From a virus (taxonomy: Duplodnaviria; Caudoviricetes): 49,979 nt of DNA. The stretch is taken from positions 1 through 49,979 of the IMG/VR virus record IMGVR_UViG_3300030376_006438. One strand, written 5' to 3'. Shown piece after piece: positions 32,558-33,462 of this stretch; the stretch's first letter is position 1; each line of letters opens with the position of its first letter. Under the pieces are notes generated by a model. It was not told the DNA's origin and searched no databases. It worked only from the letters and a program-made list of their open reading frames with translations. Both the position numbers and the translations under genes were made by a program.

Positions 32558-32582
32558 TGTTTGCTCTCCTTTTATTTTAATG

Positions 32583-32604
32583 AAAAGTAGCCCCTAAGGG
32601 CTAC
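32583..32604 (-). terminator. intrinsic terminator overlapping mini-ORF stop
   Basis: GTAGCCC-TTAG-GGGCTAC-TTTT. Confidence 0.7.
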
Positions 32605-32630
32605 CATGGGTCAAGTACTATAACTAACAT
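32601..32630 (-). CDS. 9-aa mini-ORF MLVIVLDPW (putative leader peptide)
   Basis: Perfect AAAGGAGG SD at 32638-32645, 7-nt spacer, ATG TTA GTT ATA GTA CTT GAC CCA TGG TAG. Confidence 0.55.
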   Translation of the reverse strand: MLVIVLDPW

Positions 32631-32648
32631 TATAGAACCTCCTTTATT

Positions 32649-32874
32649 GAAACGAAGAAAGACCTATAAACGCTTGTGGGATTTGAACTTATTACCCACA
32701 ACTTTCGGTAGAACAGATAGTTTCTCATCTACTCGCACTTACTTCTTAGGCCCTCAGCCATTTGGCCATGCTTCCTAAGATCAATACCTTACGACTCTGT
32801 TTTAAAATCGTTATTCAGTCAGAGCGTCCACAAACAAATTGCAATTTGTTTGATTCTAGGTCTTTCTTTATTTC
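32649..32874 (-). ncRNA. multibranch structured RNA, manA-like
   Basis: 12-bp perfect closing stem AAGAAAGACCTA/TAGGTCTTTCTT, five internal hairpins, GACUGAA, UAAGG and UUGUGGGU...AAUCCCACAA elements; G-U pairs favour minus strand. Confidence 0.75.
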
Positions 32875-32882
32875 TTATACTT

Positions 32883-32912
32883 ACTATATCGAGACATTGT
32901 AAAAAAATTCAA
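32883..32912 (-). promoter_or_regulatory. sigma70-like promoter for the structured RNA
   Basis: TTGAAT-18 bp-TATAGT; predicted +1 near 32876, at the base of the closing stem. Confidence 0.5.
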
Positions 32913-33108
32913 GTTTTTTTATCTCTTACTATATGTATGTGTGTTTTTATTTTTTTTTCAACCAACTATTTTAAAAAGTTTTGGTCAGTGGGTTTGTGAA
33001 GATTGATAACAAAAGTTATGATGATGATACTTTGAGTTACTCATTTAACCCAACACCCTTAAAACTTAAGAAATCATTTTAGTTCACTTTAGACAACCCA
33101 CGTGCCTA

Positions 33109-33173
33109 CAATATGCAAAAAGCATCAATTACACATTGTCCAAGACCCCACATCGGAGTCTTAGAAAATGTAT
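33109..33173 (-). repeat. intergenic processing-type hairpin, copy F
   Basis: TACATT-T-TCTAAGACTCC-loop-GGGGTCTTGGA-C-AATGTG plus alternative stem CAATGTGTAA/TTGCATATTG. Confidence 0.6.
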
Positions 33174-33174
33174 A

Positions 33175-33462
33175 TTATTTTTCATATTCTCTCTTGATGT
33201 CATAAAGAGCATCGTCTTTTGCTCTTTGTTTCTCTTGAGTGATTTGCTCAATTAAGTGAGGGAGCGCTTGTTCGTGCTCCACTGCTTCGTCCCAAAGATC
33301 ACAAAAACGTTTGAGATAATCCTCTTGTTCTTTTGTTAAAGAGTTCGTATAAAGATTATTATATAAAACGTCATCTGCTGACCCTTTTTCTACGTTTTTG
33401 TTTTCTTCTTTACTTAGCCAACGAGTGTAAACCTCGGTTAGCTTGGTTATATGATCTGCCAT
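33175..33462 (-). CDS. hypothetical protein
   Basis: ORF with AAAGGA SD. Confidence 0.7.
   Translation of the reverse strand: MADHITKLTEVYTRWLSKEENKNVEKGSADDVLYNNLYTNSLTKEQEDYLKRFCDLWDEAVEHEQALPHLIEQITQEKQRAKDDALYDIKREYEK

Follow-up and report, generated by a model that had tools for sequence, protein, structure and literature searches.

Which products does a phage obtain from a stretch of DNA in which a large structured RNA is followed directly by an open reading frame (ORF) of nine codons and by a terminator that overlaps its stop codon? The stretch lies on the minus strand of the record IMGVR_UViG_3300030376_006438, whose full length of 49,979 bases (completeness estimate 85%) is the window analysed here. 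An earlier note on this DNA had compared the RNA with the manA motif of marine phages and offered two readings of the unit, either an attenuator in which translation of the peptide controls read-through into downstream early genes, or a dual-function RNA that makes a micropeptide. The closing stem, the inner helices, the Shine-Dalgarno (SD) sequence, the ORF and the terminator were all found on the minus strand where it had placed them, and the second of its readings appears, from the sequences, to be the better supported. Our own best reading, which we hold to be probable, is a self-contained transcript with two outputs, a self-assembling RNA body and a throttled hydrophobic micropeptide.

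Study phage and collection of homologues

Comparison of 64 proteins of the study phage with PHROGs reveals DNA polymerase A, primase, helicases, terminase, portal, capsid and 2OG-Fe(II) oxygenases. The polymerase is 48–51% identical to those of HTVC023P, HTVC027P, 023Pt_psg01 and DSL-LC04, and by gene content and polymerase identity we place the phage near the HTVC023P-type podophages, which the abstract of a survey of 80 such genomes describes as being among the most abundant pelagiphages (PMC9599517); the words noncoding, riboswitch, tRNA and Rfam do not occur in the main text of that survey. The host would be deduced from the polymerase relatives, of which two infect Pelagibacter, one has a gammaproteobacterium listed as its host and the fourth is without a host on record. 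The cassette sits amid a minus-strand series of small unknown genes, and a tRNA/tmRNA search of the study-phage DNA found none.

Homologues were collected by pattern scans of viral and metagenome contigs; full flanks were taken for 80 loci only in each of three scans, and the homologue counts given below are lower bounds. The alignment used for covariation contains 37 distinct copies, the RNA-anchored set used for the ORF and terminator counts 48. Each of five records contains a single match to the RNA, as does the study phage. Among cultured phages, blastn with the study-phage unit and two homologues gave no real match, and the manA-like RNA is absent from cultured HTVC023P and HTVC027P. Two scans of 185,579 prokaryote genomes yielded 0 matches each with exact patterns, which miss variants. 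The literature on manA RNA and on dual-function phage RNAs, searched mostly outside subscription journals, contained neither a manA-linked peptide nor a manA RNA in pelagiphages, and the accessible portions of PMC9964418, PMC7779021 and 10.1101/2020.02.04.933952 hold nothing further on manA function.

Fold of the RNA body and relationship to manA

A stretch of 341 nt folds at −99 kcal/mol (z = −5.17, 0 of 100 shuffles). The RNA body (32649..32874, minus strand) is bounded by a long closing stem that pairs 32874–32857 with 32666–32649, and in which two-sided changes affect 11 of 17 pairs while 98% of the cells in the 37 copies are paired. The whole structure of 68 pairs, drawn from the study phage, is paired in 95.7% of cells in the 37 homologues, and the covariation that had been proposed as a check on the fold is present, 31 of the 68 pairs carrying two-sided compensatory changes. 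None of 500 shuffles matches this and slid controls pair at 33–47%; the shuffle counts overstate independence and are no true probabilities, because the homologues are related and mosaic. RNAalifold, applied to the alignment, gives two-sided changes in 29 of 61 pairs.

Inside the closing stem (all positions on the minus strand), the P1 hairpin (32831..32852) presents the loop UUGCAA at 32844–32839, with compensatory changes in four of its eight stem pairs. The P2 stem (32829–32823 with 32674–32668; 4/8 pairs compensatory) closes the multiloop of the manA core and corresponds to the GGGAG/CUCCC helix of the Rfam manA model. It encloses the manA signature GACUGAAUAA-hairpin-UAAGG (32787..32820), identified by Rfam alignment and covariation, the CUUAGG/CCUAAG helix with an inner GGCC-AAAU-GGCU hairpin (32745..32779; 3/6 and 2/4 pairs compensatory, respectively), and the 3′ hairpin UGUGGG/CCCACA (32675..32700), which is paired in 100% of cells and has a variable loop. 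The published manA alignment (PMC2864571) has a single row with a sub-domain like the CUUAGG/CCUAAG one. Two details of the fold drawn earlier fared less well: the GUAGA/UCUAC helix persists in part, as three base pairs with no two-sided change, and the T-loop-like GUUCAAA, present in only 20 of 37 homologues, was dropped as a conserved feature.

The comparison with manA itself proved justified. At the gathering score (55.2 bits) Rfam returns no match in the whole study-phage record; below it, manA (RF01745) aligns over the whole model at 32666–32844 with 27.7 bits and an E value of 3.7e-5. The same family is the top Rfam match in 19 of 20 related loci (23.0–52.4 bits), L359 giving none, and no subfamily member scored reaches the threshold. 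A model built from the subfamily only recovers, in the reverse direction, loci above the manA cut-off (L012, L009, L021 and L016, with E values of 8e-8 to 6e-4), with the exception of L003, the strongest canonical manA locus. P1, P2 and the inner helices covary, and P1, the P2-closed multiloop, the GACUGAAUAA-hairpin-UAAGG core and the 3′ UGUGGGU...UCCCAC hairpin follow one another in the order of the manA motif of marine phages (RF01745; PMC2864571). Unlike that motif, the RNA has a sub-threshold score, an extra closing stem of 17 bp, its own promoter, and a mini-ORF and terminator at its 3′ side instead of a metabolic or photosynthesis gene whose 5′ UTR it would occupy; no metabolic gene lies downstream of the cassette. 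The carriers named in PMC2864571 are T4-like cyanophages together with two gamma-proteobacterial copies, whereas the present one is an HTVC023P-like podophage. Because the Rfam scores are sub-threshold and the reciprocal model misses L003, we file the RNA as a manA-like subfamily and not as a formal member.

That manA was listed among the riboswitch candidates of 5′ UTRs (PMC2864571) raises the question whether the domain binds a ligand and thereby switches translation of the peptide or termination. Conservation of unpaired core letters would agree with this, as would the finding, made with a loose pattern, that an SD and AUG follow stem-lacking related RNAs at 9 of 17 loci. However, the body is sealed by the covarying 17-bp stem, its pairing with the SD region exceeds 0.2 in a single unit out of 31 and that with the terminator arm is close to 0, and the RNA is also found between tRNA genes and before non-coding DNA; we regard a riboswitch as very unlikely.

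Further manA-like RNAs were encountered in these searches. A second subfamily (L042, L046, L064, L073, L083 and relatives) is without the long stem and falls below the Rfam cut-off; it often has AAAGTTTC before the RNA, in surroundings that are variable and partly non-coding, and in L046 and L064 another AAAGTTTC is close by. Remoter manA-like RNAs with the altered core UGAAGAUAAU occur in L163, L182, L213, L218 and L220, two of them in tRNA-bearing regions.

Promoter

A sigma70-type promoter, TTGAAT-18-TATAGT (32883..32912, minus strand), precedes the RNA body, with TTGAAT at 32912–32907, a spacer of 18 nt and TATAGT at 32888–32883; it agrees with the consensus in 9 of 12 letters, follows an A-tract and predicts a start site near 32876. 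Sites of equal quality (9/12) number 30 in 6 kb against 23.4 expected, and taken alone the promoter is unremarkable. Its presence, pointed out earlier, gains weight from the homologous units, in which the spacer is fixed at 18 nt while its middle letters vary (30 of 31 units, and also the 31st, L359). The promoter is present in 30 of the 33 terminator-bearing copies, the remaining three being cut upstream. Scanning with the promoter only gave 80 loci, 21 of them bearing the RNA (L359 among them) and the remainder apparently chance. The lone RNA run with a match (0.07 share of words) holds contigs that span the cassette promoter; since they extend through it, they may be DNA and are uninformative on expression.

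The mini-ORF and its masking hairpin

Directly behind the closing stem follow, on the minus strand, the Shine-Dalgarno sequence AAAGGAGG (32645–32638) and the mini-ORF MLVIVLDPW* (32601..32630). As anticipated, SD, mini-ORF and terminator are conserved together: in 33 of 33 terminator-bearing copies (of 48 distinct), the UAG lies in the reading frame of the first AUG downstream of the SD. Comparison of the peptides, among them MLVIVLDPW, MFIVLDPW, MIVIVIDDW, MLIIVFDDW, MIIIIDLDYW and MLIIVLDYW, leads to the family pattern M-(hydrophobic)4-6-[D/E]-[P/D/Y]-[W/I]-UAG, with 8–11 residues. Among 22 distinct ORFs, T is the middle letter of 108 of 110 inner codons and the third-last residue is invariably Asp (GAC 17, GAT 5). 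Trp ends all 22 as well, a count that is partly built in because the terminators were located by GGTAGCC. The divergent locus L573, which retains the promoter, the SD, the stop within the terminator and the masking hairpin described below, encodes MIIIILEPI*, with Glu in place of Asp; because it ends in Ile, the Trp is dispensable.

The SD/AUG region also forms a hairpin (32640–32613, minus strand), not described in the earlier note, which covers the 3′ half of the SD and the A of the start codon, covaries, and coevolves with the ORF. Over 23 distinct sequences its native mean energy is −7.1 kcal/mol, against −4.7 ± 0.4 when the halves are swapped (0 of 5000 permutations). A large part of the ORF is thus paired, either here or in the terminator, whose stem also fixes TGG TAG, and the ORF could be seen as an untranslated by-product of two hairpins. 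We give this reading hardly any credence: the SD and the AUG are kept, and the ORF lengths of 24, 27, 30 and 33 nt differ by multiples of three only, whereas the SD-AUG spacers measure 4, 5 and 7 nt. Moreover, NTN codons persist even in the loop of the hairpin, and in the Asp/Glu codon, which neither hairpin includes, all changes are synonymous or conservative. The comparison of homologous sequences shows that the mini-ORF is under coding constraint, and we take it to encode a peptide.

The ORF accompanies the RNA closely. A relaxed search of 648 loci, most of which came via RNA patterns while two scans used the ORF or the terminator alone, gave 35 distinct ORF modules; the RNA core lies upstream of 34 of them, and the remaining one is truncated by the end of its contig. 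Among the matches listed in the ORF-only and terminator-only scans (13 loci in the latter), no RNA-free ORF module was found. Five records of module-free phages, each only 8–21% complete, likewise showed no ORF module at another place.

The peptide may be compared with the leaderless communication peptides (LCP/SIP, RopB), which are likewise hydrophobic, of 8–10 residues, and made from an ultrasmall ORF with an SD (PMC10518010), as is the case here. According to the same source these belong to Firmicutes and lie beside a RopB-type receptor, whereas the cassette peptide has an acidic residue near its C-terminus. A RopB/RRNPP receptor was not found: 14 neighbouring proteins gave no Pfam family at the cut-off, and none was present among the 64 proteins scanned with PHROGs. 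Mimicry of the C-terminus of a phage protein was also considered and rejected, as there was no match among study-phage proteins of at least 100 aa or in 82 other loci. The primase and a 275-aa protein of the study phage (22853–24412 and 24529–25356, minus strand) have an acidic tail ending in DIPF, only loosely like DPW; such tails resemble the C-terminus of bacterial single-strand binding proteins.

The terminator and the question of attenuation

The unit ends with an intrinsic terminator, GGUAGCCC-UUAG-GGGCUACU (32579..32605, minus strand), with its stem at 32605–32586, a weak U4 tail and the UAG in its 5′ arm. In all 31 full transcripts its probability of forming is 0.92 or higher, and the stop codon lies inside the 5′ arm in 33 of 33 units and in L573. 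Because of this location in every unit seen, masking of the terminator by a ribosome is physically possible, and the attenuator proposed in the earlier note would operate in this manner: a ribosome at the UAG would cover the 5′ arm and allow read-through into early genes, as in MsrDL and pyrBI, which likewise have a very short hydrophobic ORF and a terminator whose 5′ arm would be covered by the ribosome that occupies the stop codon. The 6-residue hydrophobic leader of MsrDL is described as acting so (10.1101/2021.11.29.470318), and E. coli ribosomes are reported to repress terminators close to a stop (PMC4824070). Further points in favour are the U-tract, of five or fewer in 21 of 33 units, and the pairing of the 5′ arm with the SD region, which in transcripts truncated before the 3′ arm is above 0.5 for 15 of the 31 units, the study phage having 0.27. 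In the study phage, a gene with an SD starts 28 nt past the weak U4 terminator, so that masking may be relevant there and leaky read-through may feed the downstream genes.

The surroundings of the homologous units argue against such a function. No constant same-strand gene needing read-through was found among them; the downstream genes are small unknowns that differ between phages among the matches listed, or are convergent. In L050, L561 and L573 the next gene is encoded by the opposite strand, so that read-through cannot be the conserved purpose there. A new −10 box is located downstream of the terminator in 12 of 33 units, and the cassette-free relative L462 reaches the same downstream gene. 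Sensing of branched-chain amino acids or Trp, also proposed earlier, would be expected to leave a codon run of the trpL type; there is none, the ORF having a single Trp codon, replaced by Ile in L573, while I, L, V and F interchange. In addition, terminators that lie no more than 100 bp into a coding region are reported to be unrepressed unless a pause couples the ribosome (PMC4824070), and the SD/AUG hairpin would further delay ribosome loading. Unlike MsrDL and pyrBI, the cassette has no constant same-strand target, its initiation region is masked and a large structured RNA is attached to it. Control of downstream early genes by attenuation thus finds little support, and we consider it unlikely.

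Alternatively, the tail could handle the ribosome itself, the hydrophobic nascent chain slowing termination at the UAG and either parking the ribosome or melting the 3′ hairpin, which would time trimming or decay. The length and hydrophobicity of the peptide are like those of MsrDL, which stalls at the stop codon (10.1101/2021.11.29.470318). The stop is fixed in a hairpin, the acidic residue stands at a constant distance from it, and the ORF is never found apart from the RNA among the matches listed; a parked ribosome would tether ribosomes to the RNA assembly. Free peptides of about nine residues are, besides, usually unstable. On the other hand, the last two residues vary (P/D/Y and W/I), while ribosome arrest motifs are typically tight, and initiation is masked, not favoured. 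We judge this reading to be rather improbable and retain the transcript with two outputs.

Autonomy and mobility of the cassette

An 8-bp direct repeat, TTAAAATA, marks both boundaries of the cassette on the minus strand, with an upstream copy at 32967..32974 and a downstream copy at 32573..32580. In L462, whose terminase is 91% identical, the flanks are fused at TTAAAATA and the whole cassette is absent. Conversely, the RNA occurs apart from the module, promoter, ORF and terminator being absent in 13 of 48 distinct RNA copies; six of seven such loci inspected have the RNA upstream of terL, and most follow another consensus promoter. At least 80 terminase relatives were found, of which 19 have at least 5.9 kb upstream; 11 of these 19 carry the RNA, all 11 being records from the earlier scans. 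In L031, L035 and L040, tRNA genes abut a canonical manA copy on both sides. Taken together, the sequences make the unit look like an accessory, self-contained cassette of approximately 390 bp that passes from one marine phage to another, and not like a switch acting on its neighbours. It is a recurring cassette that the Rfam cut-off and gene callers both miss.

Other structured elements were noticed around these loci. In the module-free L118, L126, L242, L272, L273 and L286, one finds upstream of the RNA a promoter of the form TTGACA-17-CATA(A/G)T together with a structured element that is small and GC-rich; between the RNA and the terminase gene, most of them have GGGCCCACCCACCC repeats. At 200–527, L035 carries a permuted tmRNA whose neighbours are tRNA genes and a copy of canonical manA. 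Just upstream of the cassette in the study phage are two further structured stretches (33101–32988 and 33174–33130, minus strand; z = −4.25 for 32950–33175), with no Rfam match at the cut-off. A GUGGG...CCCAC element among them recurs in L049, L053, L462 and L468, with a compensatory closing stem and a variable inner arm, the long upstream hairpin recurs in several relatives, and both stretches shuffle independently of the cassette.

Candidate contact loops and possible self-assembly

Two features of the RNA body that the earlier note had overlooked bear on its function as a product. The palindrome UUGCAA of the P1 loop is invariant in 37 of 37 copies, while the stem that carries it covaries, which makes the loop a candidate two-fold kissing contact between RNA copies. 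Over the family (68 manA-like loci), 38 of 48 distinct P1 loops are either palindromic (28) or GACG (10), whereas the share is 25.5% among 3000 random hairpin loops, and among P3 loops it is 10 of 40; GACG was scored as a match only after having been seen, and palindromes alone make up 28 of 48. The published manA alignment (PMC2864571, supplementary file 5), counted by eye over 26 rows, shows GACG in 14 and a palindrome in 9, and GACG tetraloops are described as forming kissing contacts in the RNA of murine leukemia virus (PMC5874298).

The second feature is the loop-loop pair AACA/UGUU (32801–32798 with 32715–32712, minus strand), which is kept in all 37 copies, with 100% of cells paired and two-sided changes in three of its four pairs. 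The covariation in this alignment amounts largely to one 20:17 split and one independent change (L216). Among 38 distinct manA-like RNAs the cognate loops score 12.1, against 10.1 ± 0.3 for permuted ones (0 of 2000 permutations), in a test in which 41 of 53 loci were parsed and a few mis-parsed ones are included. RNAalifold proposes a rival local partner for the same UGUU letters that covaries equally, and the conserved complementarity fits intramolecular as well as intermolecular pairing. A weakly supported pseudoknot in manA was already marked in 2010 (PMC2864571).

It is in this context that a recent cryo-EM preprint becomes relevant, according to which five manA RNAs form closed, pentamer-based 8-, 10- and 60-mers via kissing loops (bioRxiv 10.64898/2026.07.01.735769). 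The assemblies share the fold family of the present RNA; their kissing loops are L5-L7′, L8-L9′ and L3-L8′, and loop-loop complementarity is kept here. The RNAs of the preprint were trimmed and assembled in vitro, whereas the present case consists of sequences, and any mapping of our loops onto the preprint numbering is a guess. The cassette would nevertheless work most like these self-assembling RNAs. The two-fold axes of a decamer or 60-mer would call for one self-complementary loop on each subunit; the main text of the preprint mentions no palindrome, self-complement, two-fold or inter-pentamer contact and no peptide, although its supplement may describe a two-fold contact.

Another phage RNA, ROOL (RF03087), has the same GUGACUGAAUAA-hairpin-GUAAGG module at its 3′ end (L004, L006 and L013). 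It is a noncoding RNA found near tRNA genes and forms cages as well (10.64898/2026.07.01.735769), but measures approximately 600 nt, the remainder outside the 3′ module being unrelated by Rfam. Judged from this likeness, GUGACUGAAUAA-hairpin-GUAAGG is possibly a module shared by two cage-forming RNAs, manA and ROOL. Beyond that preprint we found no literature linking the two.

Proposed function

Based on these observations, the transcript with two outputs can be pictured as follows. The sigma70 polymerase of the host would make a single RNA of approximately 298 nt, starting near 32876. Its first 230 nt or so would fold into the manA-like domain sealed by the long stem, a fold to which the covariation testifies, and this domain would act as a noncoding RNA in its own right, most likely by assembling into closed oligomers as other manA RNAs do. 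The conserved UUGCAA palindrome could join two copies head to head, and the equally conserved AACA/UGUU pair could join neighbouring copies. The last 65 nt or so would serve as a mini-mRNA for the hydrophobic peptide of 8–11 residues with its acidic residue third from the end. The SD/AUG hairpin is expected to keep initiation low and late, so that the terminator normally forms.

The peptide would then most likely be a low-dose product acting with the manA-like RNA, since the ORF was never seen without the RNA among the matches listed; it would be dispensable for the role of the RNA, which persists without the module in 13 homologues. The overlap of stop and terminator in every unit is unexplained by a model of products alone beyond compactness. 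A more elaborate version, to which we attach only a small likelihood, would have the RNA build a protein-free cage during infection, through UUGCAA two-fold contacts and loop-loop ring contacts, with the peptide or a held ribosome of each tail as cargo or cofactor.

Since 2010 no function has become known for the manA RNA, whose annotation continues to be cis-regulatory, and the 2026 preprint, in its main text, leaves unsaid what a cage of 60 subunits is for. The manA-like variant with a conserved micropeptide tail is real and apparently undescribed. The cassette offers a natural transcript of a manA-like RNA, bounded from promoter to terminator, and indicates that neither the transfer nor the production of this RNA depends on the genes next to it. 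The self-complementary P1 loops predict a specific two-fold contact throughout the family, and the co-inherited peptide of nine residues is a first candidate partner for a manA-like RNA.

Finally, three copies of an element of about 55 nt stand before early genes of the study phage (34871–34925, 35408–35460 and 35660–35732), and at least seven are present in L448; they are possibly phage early promoters or operators.
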